Shown piece after piece: positions 13,873 through 63,713 of a DNA stretch of 64,000 nt. Source of the DNA: Pseudomonadales bacterium. GTDB lineage: Bacteria; Patescibacteriota; Microgenomatia; UBA1400; PJMF01. Below the pieces are notes generated by a model, which was given only the letters and a program-made list of their open reading frames with translations, ran no database searches and was not told where the DNA came from. The position numbers were made by a program, and so were the translations under genes. The stretch covers positions 96,894 to 160,893 of the forward strand of contig JACKFY010000002.1 in NCBI GenBank assembly GCA_020632235.1, in the 5' to 3' direction. How positions within the stretch are numbered: the stretch's first letter is position 1; each line of letters begins with the position of its first letter.

Positions 13873-14304
13873 ATGAAAAAAACTGGCTTTACCCTTATTG
13901 AAATACTTATTGTTGTGTCTATTATTGGTATCTTGGCGGCTCTTATTGTAGGAAACTTTTTGTCAGCCAGAGAAAGAGCAGCCGATGGAGCCATGAAAGG
14001 AGAGTTGGGTCAGCTGAAAACAGCTCTTCAGTTGTACTACAATGATAATCAGTCTTTTCCTTCCAGTCTTCCAGCAGAAGATCAGCAGTTTTCTGACAAT
14101 GGAACTACCTATATGGGTTCTATACCGAGAGTTGATTACTACGAGCAGCTAGACTCTGGTGATGATTTTCTTTCGTGTTCGGGGCTTGAACGCGCCGCTG
14201 ATGATCAAAAGGTGACACTAGAGAGATGTGATGTTGATGAATCTGTTGTTGAAACTTTGGCTTCTGAGGGAAGAGAAAATCCCTACTGTGTCTGTGCGGA
14301 TTAG
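13873..14304 (+). CDS. type IV pilin / pseudopilin (prepilin N-terminal cleavage-methylation domain)
   Basis: MKKTGFTLIEILIVVSIIGILAALIV class III signal with G|FTLIE cleavage/methylation site; Cys-rich C-terminus; divergent from the ligase-like gene (96-bp shared upstream region). Confidence 0.8.
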   Translation: MKKTGFTLIEILIVVSIIGILAALIVGNFLSARERAADGAMKGELGQLKTALQLYYNDNQSFPSSLPAEDQQFSDNGTTYMGSIPRVDYYEQLDSGDDFLSCSGLERAADDQKVTLERCDVDESVVETLASEGRENPYCVCAD

Positions 14305-32376: not shown

Positions 32377-35151
32377 ATGCCACCCACCACACAAGAAAAG
32401 AGACGAGAGGGAAGTGTGTCTCGTACGCTCAAGCGTCTTGTTGGTGTACTTCTGTTTCTCATCGCTACCATCATCATTGTCATCTGGATTCTGTGCTGCC
32501 TTGGTTTGCGGTGTGTTTCTGCTGGCGGAGTGTTAGGATCACTTTTTTCTTTAACGGGCAATACTACTGTTAAAACTTCTACCACTGACCATAGAGCTGG
32601 CGTAACTTCATCTGTTCGCCCTACACACTCTCCGACTACTGCAACTTCTCCTTTTCCAACTACCCCATCATTGGTAATTGAAAATACTGACTCTAAAACA
32701 AGGCAAGAAGAGAGCAGACAGGCAGGAGGCGACACGTTTATTACTCAGTACTATTACCCGATTACTAAGCTGGGAGACACCCTCATAACCAAAGTGATAG
32801 AAGTGACCGAGACTATTACTGCGCCTAATATTGTTTATTCATTACTAGCAGGTGATGGCATTCACATTTCTGATACTCAAAGCCCCACCATTACTAATAC
32901 TGGCGTAACTTCTCTTCAGGGAAGCACGGGGGATATAGTGCTCTCGGCAGGAAGTGGTATTTCTATAGATGGGACCACTATTTCTGCTACTGCATATGGC
33001 GGTACGCCTGCGGAGTATCAACAGGCCACTGGTTTTACAAATGATGGCAGTGTTACACGACTTACAGATACCACCGACCTAGTAGGAATAGGAACGCTTA
33101 CTCCTGCATACAAGCTTGATGTCCAGGCGGGAACAGGCATTGTTGGCCAGTTTTCCGGCCGTGTTATAGGTGGTGATGCAGTAAGCAGCAATGAGTTTGC
33201 TACCCTCTCACAAGTGCAAGCTGCTAGTAACAATACATACATGCTTGATGGAAATAGTTTTGGCACACTTGCTACGCTTGGTACTAATGATAGCTATGAC
33301 CTAGCATTTGAAACAGCTGGGTTCGAAAAGATGAGGATTCTTCAGAACGGAAATGTAGGAATAGGTACTACTTCACCAGGATACAAGCTGGAACTAGCAG
33401 GCACTTCTTCAATAGAAGATAGAACAATTGGCATTAACGGTACTCCTGTAGTGTACTTGCCAGATCAAAATGATTTTACTGGCTCACTGATTGTGGGTAA
33501 TGGAGGTGCTAATCTGGCAACAAATACATATGAAGGAAAATATAATACGTATGTTGGAATAAATTCAGGCCTTTCTAACACTTTGGGAGATTTTAATACT
33601 GGCGTAGGAGCTGGTTCTCTCAGGAACCTTACAACTGGATTTAATAATGCTGTTTTAGGTACTAATGCGATGCAGAACGCAGTTTCTGCTGCCAAGAATA
33701 CGGTGCTAGGCGTTGCTGCTTTAGAAGTAGGTGATGCTGGTACCAATAATACTGTGGCTGGTTACTTGGGGGCGCGGTATGTAAATGGAAATAATAATGT
33801 TTCTCTTGGTTCATATAGTTTGTATCTGCCAACAGGCGTTACAAGTGACAACACAGTAGTCGGAGCATACGCAGGCAGAGGTGCGGGCAGCGGAGCAAGT
33901 GCTGATTTAGTAGGTAATACCTTATTGGGTTATCGGTCTGGATATGCATTGCGAACGGGTGGAAACGACAATACACTTTTAGGAAATAGAGCCGGAGAAA
34001 ATATTACCAGTGGTGCGCGAAATATTGTAATTGGCTACGATCTGAATGCTCCTGCAGCCACTGGCTCCAATCAATTAAACATCGGTAATCTTATTTTCGG
34101 AACTGGTGTGGATGGAATAAATGATACACTTTCTTCTGGCAATGTCGGCATCGGCACGACCACCCCTAACGCCAAGCTCGATGTCAACGGCCTCATCCTT
34201 GCCCAATCTTTGGGTAGTGCGCCTGCGGGGGTAAGTGGCCATGCAGGGATCTTTGCCCAAGACGTATCGGGAAGTAGCGAGCTGTTTGCCCTAGACGCAG
34301 CAGGAAATACGACACAGCTATCACCCCACAACCCAGCAACTGGTACTTGGTGGTTTAATTCTAGCAACACTATTACGGGTGAAAGTTTGCTTGTAGATAT
34401 GGAAGGTCTTATTAAACAGACTGACCTGCTCCTTGGAGGAGGCTACATTACTGAAAACGGTACTACTACCAGTAGCTCTACTAACTACCTGACTTCCACT
34501 CAAGCCAACACTACTCAGCTAGCAGCGCTCTCTGATACAGTGGCAGCGGTCGATCTCGACCAATATTTAGAGAAAACAACCCTAGAGAACAACGTGACTT
34601 TGACCCAGTCACTGACAAAATTTGTGAAGAAGGTGGTGTTTGCTGCCCAGGTGACGTTCCAACAATCAGTTTCATTTATGAGATCAGTGACATTTGATGG
34701 AGTAGCAACATTCTATGAAGCACCAGTGTTGAGTGACAATATGGCTGGGCAAGCGACTATCCTTTCTGGCAGCACTAGGGTAGAGGTGGCGTTTAGCACT
34801 TCGTTTAGTAGTACACCTGTAGTAACCGTTACTCCTCATGCATTCACTGATGGGCAGTACAGAATTACCCAGCAGAGCACAACAGGCTTTGTCATAGAGC
34901 TCTCGCAACCTCAAGGTGGTGACACCGTCTTTAGTTGGCAGGCGTTGCAAGTTTCTCAGGTTGGGCAGGCACAGTCATCAGGGTCACCTTTACCAACTCC
35001 GATACCTTCACCAGACCCAAGTTCTCCTAGCGTCGACCCGACGCCTTCACCCACTCCAGAGCCAAGCGTTACTCCGTTATCTAGTCCATCACCCACTCCA
35101 GAACCGAGTGTGAGTCCCTCGCCTAGTCCTGAGGCGTCTCCTGGTCCGTAG
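32377..35151 (+). CDS. 924-aa signal-anchored surface protein with phage tail-fibre-like repeats (paralog of the giant protein repeat region) and Pro/Ser/Thr-rich C-terminal tail
   Basis: N-terminal TM LVGVLLFLIATIIIVIWILCCLGL; DGNSFGTLATLGTNDSYDLAFETAGFEKMRILQNGNVGIGTTSPGYKLELAG and GNVGIGTTTPNAKLDVNG match repeats in 14301..20243; C-terminus PTPIPSPDPSSPSVDPTPSPTPEPSVTPLSSPSPTPEPSVSPSPSPEASPGP. Confidence 0.7.
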   Translation: MPPTTQEKRREGSVSRTLKRLVGVLLFLIATIIIVIWILCCLGLRCVSAGGVLGSLFSLTGNTTVKTSTTDHRAGVTSSVRPTHSPTTATSPFPTTPSLVIENTDSKTRQEESRQAGGDTFITQYYYPITKLGDTLITKVIEVTETITAPNIVYSLLAGDGIHISDTQSPTITNTGVTSLQGSTGDIVLSAGSGISIDGTTISATAYGGTPAEYQQATGFTNDGSVTRLTDTTDLVGIGTLTPAYKLDVQAGTGIVGQFSGRVIGGDAVSSNEFATLSQVQAASNNTYMLDGNSFGTLATLGTNDSYDLAFETAGFEKMRILQNGNVGIGTTSPGYKLELAGTSSIEDRTIGINGTPVVYLPDQNDFTGSLIVGNGGANLATNTYEGKYNTYVGINSGLSNTLGDFNTGVGAGSLRNLTTGFNNAVLGTNAMQNAVSAAKNTVLGVAALEVGDAGTNNTVAGYLGARYVNGNNNVSLGSYSLYLPTGVTSDNTVVGAYAGRGAGSGASADLVGNTLLGYRSGYALRTGGNDNTLLGNRAGENITSGARNIVIGYDLNAPAATGSNQLNIGNLIFGTGVDGINDTLSSGNVGIGTTTPNAKLDVNGLILAQSLGSAPAGVSGHAGIFAQDVSGSSELFALDAAGNTTQLSPHNPATGTWWFNSSNTITGESLLVDMEGLIKQTDLLLGGGYITENGTTTSSSTNYLTSTQANTTQLAALSDTVAAVDLDQYLEKTTLENNVTLTQSLTKFVKKVVFAAQVTFQQSVSFMRSVTFDGVATFYEAPVLSDNMAGQATILSGSTRVEVAFSTSFSSTPVVTVTPHAFTDGQYRITQQSTTGFVIELSQPQGGDTVFSWQALQVSQVGQAQSSGSPLPTPIPSPDPSSPSVDPTPSPTPEPSVTPLSSPSPTPEPSVSPSPSPEASPGP

Positions 35152-41261: not shown

Positions 41262-41348
41262 ACCAATACTGATTATACAACAATAATGATATAAACGTGC
41301 CCCCGCTAGAAATCCTTGCCTGCGCAAGCAGGGAACCTAGATGTAACG

Positions 41349-41420
41349 TGCCCCCGCTAGGAATCGAACCTAGATTTAAGGTTTAGGAAACCTCCGTTCT
41401 ATCCATTGAACTACGGGAGC
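41349..41420 (-). tRNA. tRNA-Arg (anticodon CCT)
   Basis: manual fold of reverse complement: acceptor GCTCCCG/CGGGGGC, D-arm GTTC-AATGGAT-GAAC, anticodon stem GAGGT/ACCTT loop TTCCTAA (CCT), T-arm CTAGG-TTCGATT-CCTAG, discriminator A; no encoded CCA. Confidence 0.85.
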
Positions 41421-50237: not shown

Positions 50238-50645
50238 TTACTTCAGCTCGACAACACAACCAGCCTCTTCAAGTGATTTCTTGGCGGCCTCGGCGTCTTC
50301 TTTTTTAGCACCTTCCAGAACTGTCTTTGGGGCACTTTCAACAAACGTCTTGGCATCACCTAGGCCGAGTTCTGGCTTGAGAGCACGCACAGCTTTGATA
50401 GCACCGATCTTGTTTGAGCCTGCATCTTTGAGGATAACGTCAAACTCGGTTTGTTCTTCAGCTGCTGCTGCCTCGCCACCTGCTGCAGGCATGGCGCCCG
50501 CCATCATCATAGGTGCAGCGGCACTCACACCGAAGGTGTCTTCAAGGGCTGTTACGAGTTCTGATACTTCCATCAGGGAGAGTTCAGACACAGCATCAAC
50601 GATGCTTTGTACCTTTTTGGAAAGGTCTTTTTTTTCTTCTGTCAT
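50238..50645 (-). CDS. rplL: 50S ribosomal protein L7/L12
   Basis: Ala/Glu-rich hinge and C-terminal [51 protein letters not shown]. Confidence 0.9.
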
Positions 50646-50689
50646 AGGTTTCCTTTTTAGATATGACTACTTGTATTACTTACTACTGT

Positions 50690-51208
50690 TTATGCTGTTT
50701 CCTGTGCTTTCTTATCTTGTAGGGCCTTGAGTGCATAGACAAGGTTTTTTTGCCCTGCCTTTAAGACATTCACTAAACCATATGATGGACCCTGGATGCG
50801 CGCAATAAGAGTTGCGATGAGTTCGTCCTTGCCAGGTAGTTTGCTTAGTGCCAGTACTTCTTCAATAGAGAGCACCTTGTCTTCCATGTAGCCTTGCTTG
50901 ATGGTTAGTTTTTCCGTCTCGTCGTGAAAGGAAAAGAGCGCTTTGATAGCGGCAACTGCGTCGCTGTTGGAGAACACAATGGCGTTCATGCCAGTGAGGG
51001 AGTCGGTCAGCTTTCCTTTGCCTACCGCAATATCGATGAGGGTGTTTTTGGTCACCAGCATCTCGCCACCAGCGGCCGCAATTTGCTTTCTCAGCTCTAC
51101 TTGGTCATTGACAGTAGTGCCAGAGTAATCAACGATGGTAATTGATGCAGCATTCGCTACTTTATCTCTCAAAAGAGCAATTTGATCTTGGTTTTTTTGA
51201 CTTGGCAT
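50690..51208 (-). CDS. rplJ: 50S ribosomal protein L10
   Basis: 172 aa, position upstream of rplL, L10-like N-terminal [39 protein letters not shown]. Confidence 0.85.
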
Positions 51209-51626
51209 AGTTTTTGTCGTACCTAGTGTATGTAATAATTAGTTAGTTGGTTCACAAGAGAGTACGCTCAAACGCTTGCAGCGTGCGCGTAGTTGGTTTT
51301 TTACCAAGGGGAGAGTATATAGCTTTGGTAGTCTTTTGGTTAGACTGCGTAAAAGCTAGTGTGTCTTCCTCGGTGCGACTTATGTTTGCACACTGTCTTT
51401 GGAACAAGGGCTAGTATATCACGGATTACCTACCCTGCAATCTTCAAAGTTCTTGACATGCCTACCTGCGCAATTACAACAGGTCATTGTGCTTTGCCAA
51501 AACTGTGTTACTATCTGTTCTATGTATAGATGGAGTGTGTCCACCATTACTTTTAAGAAGCAACAACTTCGCGGCGCGCGGGTTGGCTTTTATGTAGCAT
51601 AAGACACACCACACATAAAACGCTCA

Positions 51627-51655
51627 CACCCGCTTAAGACAAGCGGGTTTTTTGC
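51627..51655 (+). terminator. orphan plus-strand intrinsic terminator ~290 nt upstream of thrS
   Basis: cccgctt-aagac-aagcggg followed by TTTTTT. Confidence 0.6.
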
Positions 51656-51946
51656 TTTTACACCATCGCAACTATAGGTTGGTTGGTTGAAAGCAGGGCG
51701 GTTTTTTATAAAATTGATGCAGTAGCATCCATGGTGATTGATGCGAGTATTTACTTGCAGCTATTTGATAGTCATACAGACCGAGAAACCATCCGATGCA
51801 TTCGTGATATCTTTGAGCAAACAGCACTGCAGCTTGATGCATCGTTGTTAACGGCAGATGCGCAGCTACTACAGGCTCATCCAGCCTGTATTTCTCTGGG
51901 GGAGTATCAAAAACTGTGTTAGACTAACAAAGTCTGAAAGTCTGAT

Positions 51947-53701
51947 ATGAAACAACACGCATCTAATGAAAAAAACTATCTTCAACGCCTTCGTCACTCG
52001 GCAGCGCATCTACTAGCAGCTGCAGTGCTCCAGCTCTATCCAGATGCCAAGCCAACCATAGGCCCTGCCATTGATGATGGGTTTTATTATGACTTTGACT
52101 TCCCAGAGCCGGTGGGCGAGGCCGAGCTAGCGGCTATCGAACAAAAGATGCACGCACTTCTCTCCCGCTGGAAAGAGTTTTCCCATAGGGAAGTTTCACC
52201 AAAAGAGGCACGCGCGCAGTTTGCGCGCAATGCATACAAACTGGAACTGATTGACGAACTTGACCAACAAAAAGAAGCGATCACTCTGTACACCTCGGGC
52301 GCCTTCACCGACTTGTGTCGTGGTGGACACGTAGAAAAACCCAGCGAAGAACTACAGCACTTTAAGCTCCTTTCGGTTGCTGGTGCGTACTGGCGGGGAA
52401 GTGAAAAAAATAGCATGTTGACGCGCATCTATGGCACCGCATTTTCTTCCAAAAAAGAGCTAGATGAGTATCTCCAGATGAAAGAAGAGGCAAAGAAGCG
52501 CGACCACAAAGTGCTCGGACCGCAACTTGACCTATTTACCTTTTCAGAACTTGTTGGCTCTGGCTTGCCACTCTGGACGCCCAAAGGCATGGTTATACGC
52601 TCAGAGCTTGACAACTTTGTGTGGCAGTTGCGCCAGGAAAAGGGCTACCAGCGGGTAGAAATTCCCCACATTACCAAAAAAGATCTATATGAAACCAGTG
52701 GTCATTGGGATAAGTTTAAAGATGAGTTGTTTCGTATCGTGACGCGTGAAGGGCATGAGTTTGCCATGAAGCCGATGAACTGTCCGCATCACACCCAGAT
52801 TTTTGCTAGAAAGCCGCACAGCTACCGAGAGATGCCTCAGCGGTATGCCAACACCACGATGGTTTATCGCGACGAGCAGAGTGGTGAGCTGGCTGGGCTT
52901 TCTCGAGTACGTTCGATCACCCAGGACGATGCCCATGTATTTTGTCGGCCATCTCAGATAAAAGAGGAAATGTTTAAAATCTGGGATATTATCGACACCT
53001 TTTACTCAGCCGTGGGGTTTGACCTTGACCTACGTATTTCTTTGTCTGACCCAGCAGAGCCAAAAAAATACCTGGGGAAACGAGATGACTGGTTGGTCGC
53101 CGAGGCAACGCTGCGCGAGATGGCTGATGAGCGAGGAGTAGAGGCTCAGGAAGTGGAGGGAGAAGCTGCCTTTTACGGCCCCAAGCTAGACTTTATGGCG
53201 CGGGACGCACTCGGTCGCGAGTGGCAGGTGGCGACTATTCAGCTTGATATGAACATGCCCGAACGCTTTGATCTCTATTGTATTAACGAGAGTGGTGAAA
53301 AAGAGCGGGTGGTGATGATCCACGCGGCGATTATGGGCGCTATTGAGCGCTATTTATCAATCTTAATTGAGCACTATGCAGGCGCATTTCCTGTGTGGCT
53401 GTCACCTGTGCAAGTCAAGATTTTGCCTATTTCTGATAAATTTTTGGAATACGCGCACAGTGTGGAGAAGACTTTGCAAGAGCAAGGGGTGAGGGTAGAG
53501 CTTGATGAGCGTTCCGAGCGACTTTCAGCTAAAATTCGTGATGCACAGCTAGAAAAAACTCCCTACATGTTGGTAGTAGGGGAGAAAGAACAAGCAGACA
53601 ACTCTGTTGCTGTGCGCACGCGTGAGGGTGGCGCGCAAGAGGTGCTGGCTCTTGATAGCTTTGTAGAGCAGGTTGTTAGAGAGATTAGCGAGAGAGCTTG
53701 A
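51947..53701 (+). CDS. thrS: threonine--tRNA ligase lacking the N-terminal TGS domain
   Basis: begins in the N2 editing domain (RHSAAHLLAAAV), class II motifs FRDEQSGELAGLSRVRSITQDDAHVFC, anticodon-binding C-terminus; TGA stop. Confidence 0.9.
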   Translation: MKQHASNEKNYLQRLRHSAAHLLAAAVLQLYPDAKPTIGPAIDDGFYYDFDFPEPVGEAELAAIEQKMHALLSRWKEFSHREVSPKEARAQFARNAYKLELIDELDQQKEAITLYTSGAFTDLCRGGHVEKPSEELQHFKLLSVAGAYWRGSEKNSMLTRIYGTAFSSKKELDEYLQMKEEAKKRDHKVLGPQLDLFTFSELVGSGLPLWTPKGMVIRSELDNFVWQLRQEKGYQRVEIPHITKKDLYETSGHWDKFKDELFRIVTREGHEFAMKPMNCPHHTQIFARKPHSYREMPQRYANTTMVYRDEQSGELAGLSRVRSITQDDAHVFCRPSQIKEEMFKIWDIIDTFYSAVGFDLDLRISLSDPAEPKKYLGKRDDWLVAEATLREMADERGVEAQEVEGEAAFYGPKLDFMARDALGREWQVATIQLDMNMPERFDLYCINESGEKERVVMIHAAIMGAIERYLSILIEHYAGAFPVWLSPVQVKILPISDKFLEYAHSVEKTLQEQGVRVELDERSERLSAKIRDAQLEKTPYMLVVGEKEQADNSVAVRTREGGAQEVLALDSFVEQVVREISERA

Positions 53702-53767
53702 TGTTGTGAAGAGAAATTGCTATTTTGATGCTTTGATGCTAAAATGCTCTAAATAAGTAAGAGAGGC

Positions 53768-53992
53768 ATGAGTATGCGCACCACAATTTCATTTAATGAT
53801 TCGGTCTACACAGCTTTAAAAACTCAAGCAACAGAGGCAGGCACGACTGTTTCACAGCTGGTACAGGACGCTGCCATTCATAGCTTACTTGAAAATGCAG
53901 AAGATATTGATGATGCGCTGGCGCGCTTGAGCGAGCCTACGTATTCATTTGATGATCTTCTCAAGACATTCAAGCTTGAGGGTTTGCTGTGA
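53768..53992 (+). CDS. ribbon-helix-helix (CopG/ParD-like) antitoxin
   Basis: TISFNDSVYTALKTQATEAGTTVSQLVQDA; 4-nt ATGA overlap with toxin gene. Confidence 0.7.
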   Translation: MSMRTTISFNDSVYTALKTQATEAGTTVSQLVQDAAIHSLLENAEDIDDALARLSEPTYSFDDLLKTFKLEGLL

Positions 53993-54249
53993 AGTACACT
54001 ATCAAGTACAAGAAAAGTGTTGAAAAAGATCTACGCAAACTTTCACAGAAAGATAGATCTGCAGTAGTGCGCAAGATTGTATCTCTCGGAGAGACTCCTC
54101 GTCCTGCATACAGCATTAAACTAAAAGGATCGGTCAATTTATATCGCCTACGACACGGTGCATACAGAATTATATATCAGATCTTTGATACAACGGTGAT
54201 GGTGGTAGTGGTAAAAGTAGGTCATCGCAAAGATGTATACAAACCGTAG
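53989..54249 (+). CDS. RelE/ParE-family toxin
   Basis: 86 aa, LYRLRHGAYRIIYQIFDTTVMVVVVKVGHRKDVY matches RelE/ParE C-terminal core. Confidence 0.75.
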   Translation: MKYTIKYKKSVEKDLRKLSQKDRSAVVRKIVSLGETPRPAYSIKLKGSVNLYRLRHGAYRIIYQIFDTTVMVVVVKVGHRKDVYKP

Positions 54250-55335
54250 TTAGATTGAGTTATCGCTCCATCGCTTTATCATCTTTTTTACATCAATGGC
54301 ATGCAAAAGTAGCCCCGCAGACCAAAACATCTCTGACATCTCTTCCCAGTGTCCCCAGACAGCATAGCTTTCAGTTTCTCTGAGTGGTACGTACAAAAGC
54401 ATAGGCACAAACCAGCCAAAGAGTTTGGGTGATGGGCAAAATACATCAAGTGCGTTGGCAACTGATTGACGGCCCATTTTCTTTAGTACAAACGGAATGA
54501 TCCAGGCGGTTGCGCAGTACACAGAGATGATCCAGTAGGCATAGTATACGTACTCAATAATGCCATCCAGATTATGAATGGTAATTTCTTGCTGAGAGTT
54601 TACTTTTGCTATTTCTTCGGGTGTTTCGATTCCTAGCAACCGCTGTCCCCAGCTGATTTCCTCCCCTCCAGCTACAAAGAAGACCAACCCACCAGTACAC
54701 AGCACGACGGCCAGTAGTTTAAGAAGCGCTGTTTTCGAGTGACGAAGACTCCAGCCGGCAACGCTCAGTGTTGCGGCTGCTCCAAAAAAGAAAAAGCACG
54801 TAAGGTACTCAAAGACACTATCCTCACCTTTCAAGAAGTAAAACACGGTGTGAAAATAATGCTGCTCGACAACAAATAGTAGCGAGAGTAAGAGAAACGG
54901 CAGGGAAAACTGACTGTATGGCTGCAGTTGTCTGTAGCGCTGTTTTGAACCAAACAACAAGAGAAAACTGCTGAGTAGGGCAGTGATAAGGACTAACGCG
55001 CTGGGGTGGATGTGGAACATACCAAAGGTGTAGTTTTCAAAAGTAAAAAAGTTGATCACAAGCAACAATGCGGTTAGTGGTAAAAGAAACCATTGGGCTT
55101 TGCATACTTGTGTGTGCCAGTTGTTGGAGACGCGAGCAGAGAAGAAAACCCTACTCATGATCTGTAAGCCTAGTCCTCCATAAAACACCTCCAGTAGAGT
55201 AAGAGAGAGCTTGGTTTCAATAAAGCCAGGATAGATAATAGCGTCAGCTAGCAAGAGGGCGGTAGGAGTGAGCCACGCCCACGCTAGCACACTACGCACT
55301 ATAGTGCTCCAAGATTGCTTTGTTTGCGTGCTCAT
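54250..55335 (-). CDS. hypothetical polytopic membrane protein (~10 TM helices)
   Basis: hydrophobic segments throughout, no catalytic motif recognised. Confidence 0.45.
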   Translation of the reverse strand: MSTQTKQSWSTIVRSVLAWAWLTPTALLLADAIIYPGFIETKLSLTLLEVFYGGLGLQIMSRVFFSARVSNNWHTQVCKAQWFLLPLTALLLVINFFTFENYTFGMFHIHPSALVLITALLSSFLLLFGSKQRYRQLQPYSQFSLPFLLLSLLFVVEQHYFHTVFYFLKGEDSVFEYLTCFFFFGAAATLSVAGWSLRHSKTALLKLLAVVLCTGGLVFFVAGGEEISWGQRLLGIETPEEIAKVNSQQEITIHNLDGIIEYVYYAYWIISVYCATAWIIPFVLKKMGRQSVANALDVFCPSPKLFGWFVPMLLYVPLRETESYAVWGHWEEMSEMFWSAGLLLHAIDVKKMIKRWSDNSI

Positions 55336-55392
55336 ACCATCAGGTTATACCCACTTCGCTTTTTACTTGCAAACTCATTGTGCCAAATCTTT

Positions 55393-57189
55393 TTACTCGT
55401 CCAAAAACCCGCCACTTTGATGACTCCACAGCGAAGCGTAGATGCCGTTTTTTTTAAGTAGCTTTGAGTGTGAGCCAGACTCAACAATTTTCCCCTCATC
55501 CAGCACAACGATGGCATCGAGCTTAGCAATGGTGCTTAATCTATGGGCAATCACGATGCTGGTGCGATTTTGAAATAGTTCATCAAGCGACTCTTGGATG
55601 CGCGCCTCGCTCTCGCTATCAAGCGACGAGGTGGCCTCATCGAGTACCAATATTGGCGTGTCACGTAGCATTGCGCGAGCAATAGCGATGCGCTGGCGTT
55701 GACCACCACTTAGTTTGACTCCTCGCTCGCCCACCAGTGTGTCATAGCCATCTGGCAGCGTCTCGATGAACGAGTGGGCATGTGCTTTTCTGGCAGCAGC
55801 TATGACCTGTTCTCGACTTACCTGTTGTGATCCATATCCAATGTTTTCTAGCACTGAGCGATGAAAGAGCGTGGTGTCTTGGGGTACGTATGAGATAAGC
55901 TGAGTGGCGATGTCTCGGGTTAGCTCTTTCCCATCAACCGTGATGCTTCCTTTTGGAGTGTCATATAGGCACAAAAGTAGCTTGGTCAGCGTGCTTTTTC
56001 CTCCACCACTTTTGCCTACTACACCCACTTTTTTTCCTTTTTTGATACGCAAAGAGATGCCATCAATGGCTACTTCGTTCGGGCTTTCTGGATAAGAAAA
56101 CGAGAGGTTGGTGAGTTGCAGTTCTTTGTTAAACGTGTGTTTGTGTTTCTTTTTTTCTTTTGTTGTTTCGATCTGCCGGTTGGCGGAGAGAAATCTCACA
56201 GAATCATGCCCACTTTCTACCTCTTCCAAGTTTGCAAAGAGGTAGCTATGGGCTTCTTCCCCGCGGGCTAGTTTTCTCCCAAATTCAGACAAATACCACA
56301 CAGCATCCCAAATAGTAGCGGTGAAGAGGAGTACTGTTGCCAGCAGAGTAGAGAGCTGCCCGAGCGTAATACCACCCTGGAAGTAGAGCCAAACATTCAA
56401 GACAATACTGGCAGGCCAGATGAAGTCGCGTACAAAAAAACTCATACTTCCCCAAAAAATCATGCCGTAGAGAAATGATTTTTGGGCAGCATCAAGCGCG
56501 ATGTTTTGTTTTTTTGCAACGGCTTGTACTTCCTGCTCTCTGCTGTTGTAGGCAAAAATAGCCTGGAAGTTGGCAATAGCGTCAAAGATAATGGCGTTTT
56601 TGTCTGCACCTTTGTCGGTCTCGATAGCGTTATAGTGCATGTCTCTCTCCAGCGTATACCTACCCACCAGCAGCATGCCGATAACCCCAGCCAAAAATAC
56701 AGCTCCTGTTTGCCAGTTAAGAGAACTCAAGATCAAGAATATGCCGATGATGTCCACGAGTCTGGTGATGTACTCAAAGCAAAAACTGGTCAGCACCTCT
56801 TTTGTTTCGTTCGTCAGTGTGTTGATGTGTGAGGCAATTTTTCCTGTAAATGAGTTGATGAAGTAACTATACTTTCGCTCTAGAACTCTAGAAAAAAGCC
56901 AGTTTTCATAGTGGTAGGTGATGGGCTGGATGTACTTTCGAAATAGATACTCTGAAAAGCGCCAGCTGGCGTTGTGCAGAGAGCTGGCTGTGATTAAGGC
57001 GACAACAGGCACCCAGACATCGCCGACTCCAGACGCGGTAGGCAGTGCGTCTACCAGCTGACCGATAAAGACGGGAATAGTAGCAAGGAATGCACTAGAA
57101 GCTGCAAAAGAGATTGCCACACCAGCTACCACCGTGCGGTAGGGACGCAGGTACTGCCAGAATGTTGTGAGCGACTGGTAGCGTTTCAT
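55393..57189 (-). CDS. ABC transporter fused permease/ATPase (MsbA-type exporter)
   Basis: six-helix TMD then Walker A GKSGGGKSTLTKLL, signature LSGGQRQRIAIARA, Walker B ILVLDEATSSLD. Confidence 0.85.
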   Translation of the reverse strand: MKRYQSLTTFWQYLRPYRTVVAGVAISFAASSAFLATIPVFIGQLVDALPTASGVGDVWVPVVALITASSLHNASWRFSEYLFRKYIQPITYHYENWLFSRVLERKYSYFINSFTGKIASHINTLTNETKEVLTSFCFEYITRLVDIIGIFLILSSLNWQTGAVFLAGVIGMLLVGRYTLERDMHYNAIETDKGADKNAIIFDAIANFQAIFAYNSREQEVQAVAKKQNIALDAAQKSFLYGMIFWGSMSFFVRDFIWPASIVLNVWLYFQGGITLGQLSTLLATVLLFTATIWDAVWYLSEFGRKLARGEEAHSYLFANLEEVESGHDSVRFLSANRQIETTKEKKKHKHTFNKELQLTNLSFSYPESPNEVAIDGISLRIKKGKKVGVVGKSGGGKSTLTKLLLCLYDTPKGSITVDGKELTRDIATQLISYVPQDTTLFHRSVLENIGYGSQQVSREQVIAAARKAHAHSFIETLPDGYDTLVGERGVKLSGGQRQRIAIARAMLRDTPILVLDEATSSLDSESEARIQESLDELFQNRTSIVIAHRLSTIAKLDAIVVLDEGKIVESGSHSKLLKKNGIYASLWSHQSGGFLDE

Positions 57190-57203
57190 AGGTGCGTGCC
57201 ATG

Positions 57204-57938
57204 TTATTTTGCAAGTTCTACTTTTATGCCGGGACTCATGGTGGCAGCAATAGAGAGCTTTCTTGTTTTTGTCTTGGTTGCCGTGAGGAGTGCGGTGAGG
57301 TTTTCAACAAGGTCCTTTGTCTCCATATCAGTTTTGCCGATCACCACGTGGTAGAGTGGTGCTTTTTTTTCTGTTTTGATGGTGACTGTTCCAGAGGAAA
57401 GTTGTTTCTTCTTACCTTCGATGTCTTGGGTGAGCGTGCCATTTTTGGGGTTTGGCATCAGGCCTTTGGGGCCAAGGCTGCGGGCAAACTTGGTGAGTTT
57501 TGGCATGTCAGCTGGGGTGGCTAGCAACACATCAAAATCTATGTTTCCGTCTTCAATCTGCTTGGCCACTTCTTCTGAAAATACCGCTACAGTGTATGTT
57601 TTACCTGTGTTATGTGGTAGCGCTACGCTGCCTACCTCACCCGCACTCTCCACCACCCCATGAGCGGTAATAGTGCCAGGAAATGACGAGTATGACAGCT
57701 TTTTTATCATCTCGATGGCAGAGAAGGGGTCGTACTTTCTGGTTTTGTCTACATGAGCGCGAACAGCGCTGTACTTAGCACTACGATTTTTTCTTGGTTT
57801 CTTGGCGGCCTTGATTGCTGTTGGCTTTGCTTCGCCCTCGCTTGCTGGCTCTGCAGACTGTTCTACAACATCTGCCTTGACTACCTTTGGCAAGTCTTTT
57901 GGGTCGATAGACATATCGACGTTTTTGGTGCTACCCAT
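57204..57938 (-). CDS. rplA: 50S ribosomal protein L1 (with N-terminal Lys/Ala-rich extension)
   Basis: GPKGLMPNPKNGT and core L1 blocks. Confidence 0.9.
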   Translation of the reverse strand: MGSTKNVDMSIDPKDLPKVVKADVVEQSAEPASEGEAKPTAIKAAKKPRKNRSAKYSAVRAHVDKTRKYDPFSAIEMIKKLSYSSFPGTITAHGVVESAGEVGSVALPHNTGKTYTVAVFSEEVAKQIEDGNIDFDVLLATPADMPKLTKFARSLGPKGLMPNPKNGTLTQDIEGKKKQLSSGTVTIKTEKKAPLYHVVIGKTDMETKDLVENLTALLTATKTKTRKLSIAATMSPGIKVELAK

Positions 57939-58020
57939 ATTTTCCTATTCTCCCACGTCCCCAATAGTTATCGGGATGAGTGGTGCTATTGAATACTTTT
58001 TTGTTGTGTTTGATTGGCTT

Positions 58021-58443
58021 TTACTTGACTGTTAGCCCCATGCTGCGGGCCGAGCCCATGACGATCTTCATGGCACTCTCCACACTAGTAGTGTTGAGGT
58101 CTGGTAGTTTTTCCTCTGCTATGGCTTTAATTTGGTCCATGGTGACAGTACCGGCCGACTCTCTCCCTGGTTTTTGACTGCCAGATTTTAGTTTGACCGC
58201 GCGTTTTAAGAGGTCGGTGACAGGCGGTAGCTTGAGCTCAAAGGTAAACGATTTGTCTTTATAGACTGTGATAAGGGCAGGAATGACCTGACCCCGCTTG
58301 TCTGCGGTGGCATCATTGTACTGTTTTATGAAGTCCATCATGTTGATGCCTGCCTGCCCCAAGATAGGTCCTACCGGTGGTGCGGGGGTGGCTGCGCCAG
58401 CAGGAAGGTTTAGCTTGAGTGTTGTGTCTATTTTTTTTGCCAT
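58021..58443 (-). CDS. rplK: 50S ribosomal protein L11
   Basis: PAGAATPAPPVGPILGQAGINMMDFIKQYN. Confidence 0.9.
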   Translation of the reverse strand: MAKKIDTTLKLNLPAGAATPAPPVGPILGQAGINMMDFIKQYNDATADKRGQVIPALITVYKDKSFTFELKLPPVTDLLKRAVKLKSGSQKPGRESAGTVTMDQIKAIAEEKLPDLNTTSVESAMKIVMGSARSMGLTVK

Positions 58444-58537
58444 AGATTGGGTTGCTTTTTGCTTATTACGTGCTTGGTTCTCTTGCTAAAAACAAGACGC
58501 ATGTTTTAGCGCGAGGGAGTAGTGATTGTATCACAGC

Positions 58538-59167
58538 CTACACCTTCTGCACCTGCAAGAAGTCAAGCTCAACAGGTGTTTCACGACCAAAGATATTGAC
58601 CAAGACCTCTACCTGACCTTTTTCTTCGTTAATGGTGCGTACGGTAGCTAGGAAGTCATTAAATGGACCTTCGACAATCTTGACCGCCTCGCCCTCGACA
58701 AACTCTGCCTTGAATTGTGGGGCTGCTTGGCTCATGTATTTTTGAATAGCCTCGACCTCGTGTTTGGGCAGGGCAGAGGGCTTGTTGCCAATGCCCACAA
58801 AGCCAGTTACGCCTTGAGTCGTGCGGACCGCAAGCCAAGAGTCATCAGTTAGCTCCATGTGTACTAACATATAACCAGGAAAGATTTTTTCATTGACTGT
58901 TTTTCGTTGCCCGCGCTTGATCTGGATTTTTTCCTGGGTAGGGATCAACACCTCGAGGACCTTATCGGTAAGATTGAGTGTCTCGGCACGCTGCTTGAGT
59001 GTCTCGGCTACTTTGTTTTCGTGTCCCGAGTAGGTGTGCACCACGTACCAGCGAGCTTTTTTGTTGGTTACGTCAGAAATAACCACTAGATTGGGTGAAG
59101 AAACTGTCGCTTCTTGTACCTCTGGTACCTCGGGAATATCAGTTTGGGGAGTGTCGTTGGTGTTCAT
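58538..59167 (-). CDS. nusG: transcription antiterminator NusG (with N-terminal extension)
   Basis: NGN domain KARWYVVHTYSGHENKV, KOW motif GEAVKIVEGPFNDFLATV. Confidence 0.9.
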   Translation of the reverse strand: MNTNDTPQTDIPEVPEVQEATVSSPNLVVISDVTNKKARWYVVHTYSGHENKVAETLKQRAETLNLTDKVLEVLIPTQEKIQIKRGQRKTVNEKIFPGYMLVHMELTDDSWLAVRTTQGVTGFVGIGNKPSALPKHEVEAIQKYMSQAAPQFKAEFVEGEAVKIVEGPFNDFLATVRTINEEKGQVEVLVNIFGRETPVELDFLQVQKV

Positions 59168-59201
59168 AATGCTTGGTTATTTGTACTATACTACCTGCTT
59201 T

Positions 59202-59381
59202 TTAAAAAAATAAGCTGAGTATTCTTTGGAATACATAGTCAATTACCCCGATGTAGAGGGCGATACCGCCACACACAACAACAACTAAAAGGGTGAGTTG
59301 CTGTGTCTCACTTCGAGTAGGCCAGGTGACTCGCTTTACTTCTTCAGCTACTTGACGCAGGTACTCGGCAGGGTTCAACAT
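59202..59381 (-). CDS. secE: preprotein translocase subunit SecE (59 aa; below ORF-track size cutoff)
   Basis: manual translation MLNPAEYLRQVAEEVKRVTWPTRSETQQLTLLVVVVCGGIALYIGVIDYVFQRILSLFF; position directly upstream of nusG. Confidence 0.7.
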   Translation of the reverse strand: MLNPAEYLRQVAEEVKRVTWPTRSETQQLTLLVVVVCGGIALYIGVIDYVFQRILSLFF

Positions 59382-59456
59382 AGGTATTCTTTTTACTGGA
59401 CAGCCGATTGTATCAAAGAGGGTGCAGGAAAGAAAGTGGTATCACAGGTTTTGTGA

Positions 59457-59942
59457 TTACTTTGCACCTGAAAATACATGTATTATTTTTTGTTGGTTGA
59501 GGTGATCTTCTCTGTTTGTGCCTCTATCGTCAATGGTGTTTACTACGAGATGGCGTGTTCTAATGGTTTGTCGCAGACGTAGGCGACGCAGGTACTTTGA
59601 CAGTAAAATGAGCATGCTAACGCCAATGCCAAACCCAAGTACTATTGGTGCTGGGGAGGGGTCGGCGGGGTAGGCTTGGGTGGTGGCCAGTAATCCAGCC
59701 GAGGGAGTGGCAGTGCCACTAGCGGTGCTCTCAACTGCAGCTGCGACTACTCCTTCCTCTTTTTTACTACTGCAGGAAGTGCTGCTTGGGTTGCTTGGCA
59801 GTCGGCAGCTACCAGATACGCAAGTCAGACCTCGTGCGCACTCAAGACTACTGCCGCAACTGGTGTTACAGCTGGCACGCACTTGGGCTTGTTCTGTTGT
59901 GCTTAGGGGGGTACAAGCTACGCTTTGTGTATTTTCGGGCAA
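59457..59942 (-). CDS. hypothetical Cys-rich protein with C-terminal TM helix
   Basis: CNTSCGSSLECARGLTCVSGSCRLPSNPSSTSCSS then PIVLGFGIGVSMLILL. Confidence 0.35.
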   Translation of the reverse strand: MPENTQSVACTPLSTTEQAQVRASCNTSCGSSLECARGLTCVSGSCRLPSNPSSTSCSSKKEEGVVAAAVESTASGTATPSAGLLATTQAYPADPSPAPIVLGFGIGVSMLILLSKYLRRLRLRQTIRTRHLVVNTIDDRGTNREDHLNQQKIIHVFSGAK

Positions 59943-60787
59943 GCGACAACGATTGCTCCAACAGGTGAGTGTGCCTGCACAGTCGCTATCACTGCTGCAT
60001 ACTTGGTTGCACTGCAGAGAGCCGGCGGTGGCAGCTTGGGTGTTTTCTGATTGTTCAGTACTAGAGCTTTGGTTGGTCTGTTCATCGTCTGATTCTTGAG
60101 GAGGCGGCGTGCTGGTTGGGTTGGTGTTGGGTGGTAGGGGTGGGTGGTGGGCGCTGGACTCTGGCTGGCGGGGGTAGGTGAGGGGGAGGCTGGTTGTACT
60201 TCTTTGATGGGGAAGGTGTGCGAGTAGGGGTTGTAGGCATACTTTGTTGTATCTGTGAGCAGGAAGGAACTTCCTGTTTCAATCGATACAGTGATACTTT
60301 CCGGCTGGGTTGTATGAAACGAGAGAGTAAGTGATTGGTTGCTATCAGCATACGCCTCGTCTTGGTTTAGGCCAGTAAACTCGGTAAAAACACGATACCC
60401 ACCGTCTGTTTGCTCTACCTCACTTTTTATCAATGAGAGTGGGCCACTGCCCGCAGATACTTGGAGGTCGGCGATGGCGTCACTTTGAATGAAGAGTACC
60501 AGACGTGCTGTCTGTGTGTGTTCGGGTGGGAGGGTGGTAGTAGTTCTGATTTCTTGCGCTGATGTATTCGGGTGGGTGAGAGGGAGGGGGGCGGAGGCAG
60601 TGAGTTTTGGCTGAAATACTTCATCAGTAGCCTCTTGAGCAGCTGGCTGGAGGCGACTATTGTGATCTATCAAAACACCCATTACACCAGAGACAATACA
60701 GAGGGCAGCAACGCCTGTCCAAAAAAACCGCGCGGCCTTCATGATGCGTTTTTTTCCTGTTTTGAGTGCTCTTTGCCACGGTTTCAT
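59918..60787 (-). CDS. hypothetical secreted protein with Pro/Thr-rich segment
   Basis: signal-anchor FFWTGVAALCIVSGVMGVLI; PASPSPTPASQSPAPTTHPYHPTPTQP; 25-nt overlap with downstream ORF. Confidence 0.4.
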   Translation of the reverse strand: MKPWQRALKTGKKRIMKAARFFWTGVAALCIVSGVMGVLIDHNSRLQPAAQEATDEVFQPKLTASAPLPLTHPNTSAQEIRTTTTLPPEHTQTARLVLFIQSDAIADLQVSAGSGPLSLIKSEVEQTDGGYRVFTEFTGLNQDEAYADSNQSLTLSFHTTQPESITVSIETGSSFLLTDTTKYAYNPYSHTFPIKEVQPASPSPTPASQSPAPTTHPYHPTPTQPARRLLKNQTMNRPTKALVLNNQKTPKLPPPALCSATKYAAVIATVQAHSPVGAIVVACPKIHKA

Positions 60788-62640: not shown

Positions 62641-62712
62641 GCCGAAGTGGCTCAGTGGCAGAGCACCATCTTGGTAAGATGGGGGTCACGGGTTCGATTC
62701 CCGTCTTCGGCT
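62641..62712 (+). tRNA. tRNA-Thr (anticodon GGT)
   Basis: acceptor GCCGAAG/CTTCGGC, D-arm GCTC-AGTGGCA-GAGC, anticodon stem CCATC/GATGG loop TTGGTAA, T-arm ACGGG-TTCGATT-CCCGT. Confidence 0.9.
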
Positions 62713-62756
62713 CATGTTTTTGCTCGGGCATCTGTAAGTGTGATAACATACCCAGT

Positions 62757-63338
62757 ATGGCAGTACGAAGAACCGCACAGGTAGGACATCCAGCACTTCA
62801 GAGCGCGAATGAAATAATTTCAAATTTTTCTGATACAAAACTTCTTTCTTTGATTCAAGACCTAGAAGACACCATGCTAGCAGCAGACCTGATAGGTTTG
62901 GCAGCCCCACAGATAGGGGAGAACCATCAGGTGTTCATTACCCAACCCAGAAAAACAAAGTCTCGACCAGAGATTGCCGATGAGCTGCGGGTGTACATCA
63001 ACCCCACCATCACCCAGTTTTCAGATGAGACAGTTACTATTTTTGAAGGGTGTGGCAGCGTGGTGCATGGTCAGCTCTTTGGCCCGGTTTCTCGTCCTAA
63101 AACGATCACGATCGAGGCATTTGATAGGGTAGGGAAGAAGTTTTCTTTGACGTGCGATGGTATTTTGGCTAGGGTTATCCAGCACGAATACGACCACCTG
63201 CAGGGCGTGGAGTTTCTTGAAAAAGTCTCCGATTACAGAGAAATGATGGCGCTAGAGCACTACAAAGAAAATGTGGCTACTTCGCAACCTCATATTGATG
63301 CTTCGCAGATTTCTGCACTTGAATTCAAGTATCTCTAG
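62757..63338 (+). CDS. def: peptide deformylase
   Basis: GLAAPQIG, EGCGSV, QHEYDHLQG (HExxH) motifs; start at MAVRRTAQ after the tRNA (track ORF 62583 reads through the tRNA). Confidence 0.85.
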   Translation: MAVRRTAQVGHPALQSANEIISNFSDTKLLSLIQDLEDTMLAADLIGLAAPQIGENHQVFITQPRKTKSRPEIADELRVYINPTITQFSDETVTIFEGCGSVVHGQLFGPVSRPKTITIEAFDRVGKKFSLTCDGILARVIQHEYDHLQGVEFLEKVSDYREMMALEHYKENVATSQPHIDASQISALEFKYL

Positions 63339-63414
63339 GTTGTTTTGATCGCGCTGCTATATCTTGTTTTTGCCCAAAGGCCTCCCTCATGATAAAATTC
63401 GGTAGCAAAAATAC

Positions 63415-63497
63415 GCTAGGTTACCCAAGTGGCCAACGGGGGCAGACTGTAAATCTGCTGGCACACGCCTACATAGGTTCGAATCCTATACCTAGCA
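63415..63497 (+). tRNA. tRNA-Tyr (anticodon GTA), long variable arm
   Basis: acceptor GCTAGGT/ACCTAGC, anticodon stem GCAGA/TCTGC loop CTGTAAA, T-arm ATAGG-TTCGAAT-CCTAT. Confidence 0.85.
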
Positions 63498-63592
63498 CTT
63501 GTGCTATCTTAGCTCAGTTCCCCGACGCACAGTCGGGAGAGCCAAGAGTGTTGATAGTAAGGTGAGAGAACGGCAAACATTGGAAATATAGC

Positions 63593-63666
63593 GCCATCTT
63601 AGCTCAGTTGGTTAGAGCGGCTGTTTTGTAAACAGTAGGTCCGGGGTTCGAATCCCCGAGATGGCT
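63593..63666 (+). tRNA. tRNA-Thr (anticodon TGT)
   Basis: acceptor GCCATCT/AGATGGC, D-arm TAGCTCAGTTGGTTAGAGC, anticodon loop TTTGTAA, T-arm CGGGG-TTCGAAT-CCCCG. Confidence 0.85.
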
Positions 63667-63713
63667 CAAAATGGCCTCTCCCAAAACCCATTTTTGTGTG
63701 TATAATCGTGTGT

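Follow-up and report, generated by a model that had tools for sequence, protein, structure and literature searches.

In Escherichia coli K-12 (NC_000913.3, 4177358-4185273), the genes secE, nusG, rplK, rplA, rplJ and rplL lie in this order on one strand, with tight junctions inside the operons and a 412-bp gap at the rplA/rplJ boundary, which holds the rplJ promoter and its leader. This contiguous order is the widespread bacterial state, and the rplJ promoter is a main promoter of the E. coli locus, although genes are reported to lie between rplKA and rplJL in Bradyrhizobium diazoefficiens and Actinomyces israelii (10.1101/2025.04.14.645983). More broadly, small insertions between translation operons can be followed by further disconnection in descendants (Brandis 2021, PMC8046335), as studied in Gammaproteobacteria and Bacilli at the rpoBC-str, str-S10 and rplL-rsmC junctions (PMC8046335; Brandis et al. 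2019, PMC6735719). Here, we analyzed a 64,000-nucleotide (nt) stretch (hereafter "the window") from a metagenome-assembled genome of the patescibacterial Candidate Phyla Radiation (CPR; assembly GCA_020632235.1, contig JACKFY010000002.1, positions 96,894 to 160,893), in which the rplKA and rplJL operons are split by several unrelated genes. We find that this split is an old lineage trait located at a normal operon boundary, and not a recent insertion. The rearrangement is of an already known kind, and the part specific to this genome is ordinary accessory cargo at an operon boundary. In Mycobacterium tuberculosis, about ten genes presumably also separate rplA (Rv0641) from rplJ (Rv0651), an arrangement for which a literature check by Rv numbers found nothing.

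Gene identities were assigned from the list of open reading frames (ORFs) together with Pfam and NCBIfam profile scans of the window proteins (Table 1). The locus resembles the E. coli cluster in that the same six genes occur in the same order on one strand, including rplK, rplA, rplJ and rplL in K-A-J-L order, with tight intra-operon junctions. It differs at the rplA/rplJ boundary: instead of 412 bp, 5,995 bp separate the rplA stop from the rplJ start, with five genes in between, i.e., an ABC exporter that begins 14 nt past the rplA stop, a membrane protein gene of 361 amino acids (aa), a toxin gene and a putative antitoxin gene of the RelE/ParE and ribbon-helix-helix (RHH) types, and thrS in reverse orientation, 738 bp from rplJ. 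It also differs downstream of rplL, which here and clade-wide is followed by a MerR-type helix-turn-helix (HTH) gene, WecG, MurL and a Mur ligase, not by rpoBC. No ORF of the size of rpoB or rpoC exists in the 64-kb window, in which only two ORFs exceed 1000 aa (a leucyl-tRNA synthetase and a 1980-aa Peptidase_S74-domain protein). The original prediction, made from the sequence of this region, had described the same separation and the same intervening genes, and every ORF was found at the position it had given, although the spacer is shorter than its ~6.3 kb. It had also called the arrangement an unusual synteny break, which is accurate insofar as the locus departs from the canonical secE-nusG-rplKAJL-rpoBC order, but the departure is clade-wide and has the precedents mentioned above.

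To place the split in time, we turned to relatives. By its L10 homologs, the organism belongs with Patescibacteria labelled Pacebacteria or Woesebacteria. With one genome retained per species, 80 rplJ loci were obtained, in which L10 shares 46-73% identity with that of the window. Synteny was mapped by tblastn of the window proteins onto these loci and scored on the 75 relatives included in a neighbour-joining tree of L10 and L12 rooted on E. coli. Overall, 44 of these 75 displayed the order secE-nusG-rplK-rplA, then thrS (reverse), then rplJ-rplL-HTH-WecG(reverse)-MurL-Mur ligase, and 11 more carried reverse thrS upstream of rplJ with rplA outside the fetched range, for a total of 55 relatives with reverse thrS at this position. 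Only the two most divergent genomes (L080 and L082) had rplA directly upstream of rplJ, while 18 relatives were unscorable, mostly due to short contigs. L082 and L080 are the first branches in the tree and every split genome falls in one derived group, hence one ancient break is the simplest reading, and we provisionally regard the reversed thrS between rplA and rplJ as ancestral to a clade of at least 55 species. Accordingly, the term "inserted genes", which had been applied to the whole block, no longer suits thrS, whose order is the ancestral one in these relatives, and holds only for the exporter, membrane protein and toxin-antitoxin pair. The Bradyrhizobium and Actinomyces breaks affect the same inter-operon boundary and likewise have unrelated genes in between; they differ in lineage and in the inserted genes, the gene fixed here in at least 55 CPR species being that of an aminoacyl-tRNA synthetase.

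Junction sizes across the clade suggest how the split locus subsequently evolved. Within operons (secE-nusG, nusG-rplK, rplK-rplA and rplJ-rplL), median distances were 56-81 bp, and 0-4 junctions exceeded 500 bp. This threshold was exceeded, in contrast, by rplA-thrS in 29 of 45 relatives (range 15-4,072 bp), by thrS-rplJ in all 57 (range 738-6,645 bp, this genome having the smallest), and by rplL-HTH in 49 of 71. Since operon boundaries are loose and intra-operon junctions tight, rplA-thrS and thrS-rplJ are ordinary loose boundaries, and no special hot spot. Half of the ORFs found in these gaps were singletons (131 of 262), and the recurrent ones included a DUF2207 membrane protein (24 loci), AbiEii/AbiEi pairs, Phd/YefM antitoxins, PIN-domain proteins and an ABC1-type kinase; in most relatives, genes in the thrS-rplJ gap lie on the thrS strand. 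Integration linked to tRNA genes was considered and dropped, as only 2 of 60 loci had tRNA genes in their gaps. This loosening resembles the one described at other operon boundaries by Brandis and colleagues, to which it adds a CPR example, both the CPR and the rplA/rplJ junction being outside those studies.

Further out, the flanking tRNA and NTP-transferase genes recur across the clade, so that a ~22-kb neighbourhood is conserved except at operon boundaries. Upstream of secE, the window carries tRNA-Thr(ggt), tRNA-Tyr and tRNA-Thr(tgt) genes along with an NTP-transferase gene (62641-63667, +). Downstream of rplL (50238 to ~44950) lie an 87-aa ORF, MerR/excisionase-type HTH, WecG (reverse), MurL and the Mur ligase, in a clade-conserved order, and a tRNA-Arg(cct) gene (41348-41420, -) is found ~9 kb downstream of rplL, where relatives also have tRNA-Pro(cgg).

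The control elements of rplJL argue for the same history. In the loci of 72 of 79 relatives, at least 5 of the 6 positions of a TATAAT box were matched 7-15 nt (mode 10) upstream of a conserved leader motif, with TG at -15/-14 in 46 of these 72. The unsplit genomes L080 and L082 are among the relatives with both elements, which are located there between rplA and rplJ (124 and 95 nt upstream of the latter). Because these two genomes have both promoter and leader, and the E. coli gap and promoter are placed likewise, the two elements would predate the split, with the break just upstream of them. The predicted rplJ promoter is therefore retained, and not newly acquired. The original prediction had located an rplJL promoter and leader close to where we find them, but its view that rplJL must have acquired this promoter does not stand, since the -10 box and the leader (77 of 79 relatives) extend to unsplit genomes.

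In similarity searches with the 738-bp spacer, the leader stood out as the only conserved stretch, at 140-210 nt from rplJ on the upstream side. Alignment of 79 rplJ upstream regions yielded the motif UCCAAAGACAG-YGYG-[variable hairpin]-A-rich-CRCRCCGAGGA, the core of which is 31-87 nt long in the clade and 37 nt in the window, where it begins 10 nt after the -10 box and ends 158 nt before the rplJ ATG, i.e., in the rplJ 5' untranslated region (window coordinates were converted from locus L001). The proposed helices are well supported: 97.4% of alignment cells form pairs, compared to 32-57% in slid controls, and one of the pairs splits between CG (36) and UA (35), a clear covariation. Across 72 leaders, a UCC-AAAGA...CCG-A-GGA signature is near-invariant while the flanking helices covary, and the C at column 85, the opposing A at column 12, and an unpaired AA at most 8 nt before the 3' strand are found in all 72. 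A covariance model built from this alignment (R1) gave one strong match in the window (50.2 bits). A weak R1 match in the membrane protein gene (54806-54892, E=0.057) was rejected as its stems do not pair, and a second 'CCAAAGACAG...CCGAGG' within rplL (50288-50330) was attributed to chance, being found in 1 of 80 rplL genes.

In position and architecture, this element is reminiscent of the Rfam L10 leader (RF00557). Both lie 5' of rplJ and share a core (CC-AAGACAG...UAA...CCGAGG), an invariant A/C mismatch or bulge, an unpaired AA, and the frame of 23S helix 42, which reads AGACAG-CCAGG...[H43-44]...CUGG-UCGAG in E. coli. When a stretch of 251 nt was searched alone, the Rfam model aligned to the same bases at 16.5 bits, relative to a gathering score of 44. 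The window core is much shorter, is followed by no terminator match, and stays under this gathering score; a search of 10 kb for a T-box, a thrS operator or an L10 leader likewise gave no Rfam match (gathering score; E<=5). According to Fu et al. 2013 (PMC3616713), the L10(L12)4 site of the known leader is a kink-turn in which one C is bulged and two adenosines are unpaired, a direct mimic of its counterpart in rRNA. By analogy, we infer that L10 is autoregulated here through binding of L10(L12)4 to the reduced leader. A modest by-product of the analysis is thus a reduced L10 leader with strong covariation, missed by current Rfam thresholds, which may help to annotate how rplJ is regulated in Patescibacteria.

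Taken together, these observations lead us to favor, as the probable explanation, a single old break at a pre-existing operon boundary, with controls kept and lineage-specific cargo added later. In the ancestor of a Pacebacteria/Woesebacteria-like clade, the cluster would have been broken once between the rplKA and rplJL units, and thrS would have come to sit in the break, reversed and converging on rplA. Each ribosomal unit would have kept its own control elements, in the case of rplJL an extended -10 promoter of the sigma-70 type together with a short leader that binds L10(L12)4 and copies the L10 site of 23S helix 42, so that the break needed no regulatory invention. As at other operon boundaries nearby, accessory genes, several toxin-antitoxin modules among them, would then have come and gone at the new rplA-thrS and thrS-rplJ junctions, separately from one lineage to the next; in this genome, the rplA-thrS junction would have taken up the exporter, the membrane protein and the RHH/RelE-ParE pair, while thrS-rplJ shrank to its present size.

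Several points weigh against this scenario. The tree is based on two short proteins, by neighbour joining and without support values, so "single origin" (which we infer) and "earliest-branching" are both provisional. In L028, L051 and L062 (the last being the complete genome CP011212.1), all of which branch inside the split clade, the 10 kb upstream of rplJ contain neither thrS nor rplA; further rearrangements have occurred. The promoters are assigned by sequence matches only, a promoter consensus scan did not list the one upstream of rplJ, and the co-transcription of the exporter with rplKA discussed below is deduced from gene spacing and pattern searches. For the leader, the L10_leader gathering score was not reached in the window or in any of the seven relatives tested, and the minimum-energy fold of a single 5' untranslated sequence fails to give the covariation-supported helices. 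R1 had no meaningful match in the E. coli 23S rRNA or rplJ leader, hence the mimicry rests on the comparison of sequence frames and on the literature rather than on a score. Finally, the two Logan runs used below to verify the assembly may share samples with the window's own assembly, which leaves comparative synteny as the stronger argument against an artefact.

Such an artefact, in which the two ribosomal operons would have been falsely joined via unrelated sequence, is a legitimate concern for a metagenome-assembled genome, and the window does differ from other assemblies by a 1-nt indel nearby (~60136). However, an identical L10 protein is encoded, with the same gene order, on two Logan contigs, from SRR12358675 (21.3 kb) and SRR12358676 (13.8 kb), which are colinear with the window over 19.8 kb (99.93% identity) and 12.3 kb (99.95%), the sole gap in these alignments being that indel, far from the junctions, and the same backbone order is shared by dozens of genomes that come independently from separate studies. 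A mis-join of the two operons, a worry already voiced in the original prediction, is thus excluded, and the probability left for an artefact is negligible. Alternatively, the whole ~6-kb spacer might be a recent insertion into a contiguous rplKAJL cluster that forced the emergence of a new rplJL promoter, a view in line with the contiguous order of E. coli, L080 and L082 and with the exporter, membrane protein and toxin-antitoxin pair being unique to this genome at this site. Yet reverse thrS occupies the same place in 55 related species whose L10 shares just 51-75% identity with that of the window, and conservation of the promoter box and of the leader extends throughout the clade and to the unsplit outgroups. 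Moreover, the codon-usage and GC comparison proposed along with the original prediction revealed no anomaly in the block: its GC content is 0.461 (window: 0.456), its tetranucleotide distance falls at the 16th percentile of same-sized windows, and its codon distances are typical. Only short, chance-level direct or inverted repeats flank the cargo, Pfam and NCBIfam scans of the spacer ORFs found no integrase or transposase, and the spacer holds no tRNA gene. Nothing marks a mobile genomic island, and we consider a recent insertion extremely unlikely.

The polarity of the change could also be reversed if the split were ancestral to a wider group and L080 and L082 had re-joined rplA and rplJ. With a weak tree and only two unsplit genomes recovered, this deserves consideration, but the contiguous order is the widespread bacterial state, and two lineages would each have needed a deletion precise enough to bring back the canonical junction exactly, promoter and leader included, which makes a reversal highly unlikely. 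A different question is whether thrS was kept in place by selection for expression coupling, either through convergent transcription with rplKA or through a shared growth-rate-controlled domain, instead of neutrally. All the genes concerned act in translation, thrS was retained across a deep clade while the flanking cargo turned over, and rplA and thrS converge within 212 bp in 16 of 47 loci (a count that takes in both copies of this genome). Still, there is no fixed regulatory geometry, with thrS-rplJ spanning 0.74-6.6 kb with unrelated genes in between and rplA-thrS spanning 15 bp-4.1 kb, no conserved sequence was found upstream of thrS, and thrS would be expected to stay in place just as well because essential genes flanked by two essential operons are generally stable. 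Functional linkage is thus unlikely, and the old break at an operon boundary remains the reading we prefer. Its main value is corrective, as what appeared to be a striking recent insertion is a rearrangement of old date, shared across the clade and located where operons naturally meet; in addition, the succession of rplA, reverse thrS and rplJ provides a usable synteny marker for the Pacebacteria/Woesebacteria-like clade.

The cargo specific to this genome was then characterized. The exporter, the membrane protein and the RHH gene of the window were found in none of the 80 related loci; one relative encodes a RelE-like ORF in its thrS-rplJ gap, and in no relative is the toxin-antitoxin module of the window linked to ribosomal genes. 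The best full-length homologs of the exporter are at most 51% identical, the named ones being mostly from Saccharibacteria. It scores under all NCBIfam equivalog cut-offs, including those for MsbA (347-375 bits vs cut-offs of 602-780; for TIGR02203 and NF008381, 347 vs 602 and 284 vs 867 bits), and is best described as a generic ABCB half-transporter, so that the earlier designation "MsbA-type" is true of its architecture only. The membrane protein has no Pfam or NCBIfam match; its 83 homologs, the closest 43% identical, carry no Pfam domain and occur in unrelated neighbourhoods, two of them beside PMT_2 glycosyltransferase-like genes. A conserved module of exporter and membrane protein was considered and rejected, as membrane protein homologs are found without an ABC gene and in unrelated contexts. 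The three cargo items (exporter, membrane protein and toxin-antitoxin pair) may have arrived separately.

The putative toxin-antitoxin pair shares several features with type II RelE/ParE modules associated with RHH antitoxins, i.e., a small candidate antitoxin gene upstream, a 4-nt overlap between the antitoxin ORF and the toxin start, a toxin above its Pfam threshold, and a promoter-like site upstream. The position and overlap of the two ORFs are typical for type II modules. Unlike in such modules, the putative antitoxin falls under all family thresholds, RelB antitoxin models giving only weak, sub-cut-off scores, and the toxin reaches 25.3 bits against the NCBIfam RelE_StbE model (cut-off 27.9). 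The toxin gene is convergent with the membrane protein gene, the two ends abutting with zero spacer.

Transcription of the remaining cargo may depend on the ribosomal operon. A pattern search on the minus strand found no extended -10-like box before the exporter or the membrane protein gene, and given the 14-nt gap after rplA and the absence of a promoter or terminator match in between, read-through from rplKA would be the likeliest source of their transcripts; the two genes would then be co-transcribed with rplKA. Candidate extended -10-like boxes were found upstream of secE and rplK (Table 1). Similar TGnTAnAAT-like boxes are present in the nusG-rplK spacer of several relatives. Over the whole window, the pattern shows no enrichment (13 occurrences for an expected 10). 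No conserved L1-binding leader was apparent upstream of rplK, the nusG-rplK spacers (16-2024 bp) showing no shared motif by eye. A more ambitious interpretation, which we regard as doubtful and raise only tentatively, is that accessory genes have kept landing over long periods at the junctions created by the old thrS insertion, with no part played by tRNA genes or integrases. Toxin-antitoxin and Abi modules, transporters and kinases would have arrived in this way throughout this CPR clade, the exporter and membrane protein of this genome would be transcriptionally fused to the L11-L1 operon, and the clade would in parallel carry a minimal L10 leader (core of 31-87 nt) that escapes Rfam. If this were true, exporter and membrane protein would be expressed at ribosomal-protein levels, outside L1 feedback control, and autoregulation of ribosomal proteins by rRNA mimicry would persist in reduced CPR genomes.

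Table 1 Features of the split ribosomal protein locus, with window coordinates.
Feature	Coordinates	Strand	Evidence and remarks
rplL (L7/L12)	50238-50645	-	TIGR00855, 126 bits
rplJ (L10)	50690-51208	-	NF000955, 148 bits
Putative reduced L10-leader RNA core	51363-51405	-	UCC-AAAGA-CAGUGUG-[short loop]-AUAAGU-CGCACCG-A-GGA
Predicted rplJ promoter	51413-51440	-	TTGCAG -35-like (51440-51435), 16-nt spacer, extended -10 TGATATACT (51421-51413); sequence match
Terminator-like hairpin	51628-51648	+	ACCCGCTT-AAGAC-AAGCGGGT then TTTTTTG; in thrS-rplJ spacer, upstream of candidate thrS promoter
Promoter-like site, candidate for thrS	51687-51714	+	TTGAAA-16-TAAAAT, 233 nt upstream of thrS; consensus match only
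thrS (threonine-tRNA ligase)	51947-53701	+ (opposite strand)	TIGR00418, 677 bits
Promoter-like site upstream of antitoxin gene	53717-53745	+	TTGCTA-17-TAAAAT with TG; consensus match only
Putative RHH/RelB-like antitoxin, 74 aa	53768-53992	+	RHH_5, 20 bits (gathering 26)
ParE/RelE-family toxin, 86 aa	53989-54249	+	Pfam ParE_toxin PF05016, 42 bits (gathering 23)
Multi-pass membrane protein, 361 aa	54250-55335	-	No family match; at least 6 hydrophobic segments
ABCB-type half-transporter (exporter)	55393-57189	-	ABC_membrane and ABC_tran (Pfam)
rplA (L1)	57204-57938	-	Pfam Ribosomal_L1, 91 bits, residues 125-236 only
rplK (L11)	58021-58443	-	TIGR01632, 188 bits
Extended -10-like box, candidate rplKA promoter	58525-58533	-	TGATACAAT, directly after nusG stop; pattern match
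nusG	58538-59167	-	Pfam NusG, 103 bits, match from residue 39
secE	59202-59381	-	TIGR00964, 61 bits
Extended -10-like box, candidate secE promoter	59407-59415	-	TGATACAAT, 26-34 nt upstream of secE; pattern match
161-aa ORF from split gene	59457-59942	-	
289-aa ORF from split gene	59918-60787	-	

In the thrS-rplJ spacer, the strong terminator-like hairpin has no recognizable gene upstream of it and appears as an orphan. A 67-aa ORF (51399-51602, +) overlaps the rplJ promoter on the opposite strand. Searches with blastn, nhmmer and blastx revealed nothing similar in relatives to the thrS-proximal spacer or to its 63/79-aa and 67-aa ORFs. The region of the orphan hairpin (51441-51660) could be the remnant of a gene since lost, or else a small RNA.

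NusG carries ~38 additional N-terminal residues ahead of the match to its N-terminal domain. L1 has a divergent N-terminal half: models cover only residues ~122-243, the N-terminal ~120 residues contain a Lys/Ala-rich stretch, and the score against TIGR01169 (NCBIfam) is under the cut-off (133 vs 216 bits); identity to the L1 of relatives is 45-58%. Upstream (5') of secE, the base at ~60136 that is present in both Logan assemblies is missing from the window, which splits the gene of a 443-aa Pro/Thr-rich protein into the 289-aa and 161-aa ORFs of Table 1. The missing base reflects an error in the assembly or else a frameshift in the strain.

Elsewhere in the window, the 924-aa ORF directly after leuS (32377-35151, +) has no Pfam match and an unusually low GC content at third codon positions (0.36). 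In the 1980-aa ORF (14301-20243, -), a Peptidase_S74 (endosialidase chaperone) domain occurs together with an N-terminal domain of the phage-integrase SAM-like type, and no other stretch of the window deviates as much in tetranucleotide composition. Among the relatives, many records (L006, L008, L013, L016 and others) are titled "uncultured Pseudomonadales bacterium", yet their proteins are those of Patescibacteria (Pacebacteria/Woesebacteria), and the "Pseudomonadales" titles thus appear to be a taxonomy-label artefact in public records.

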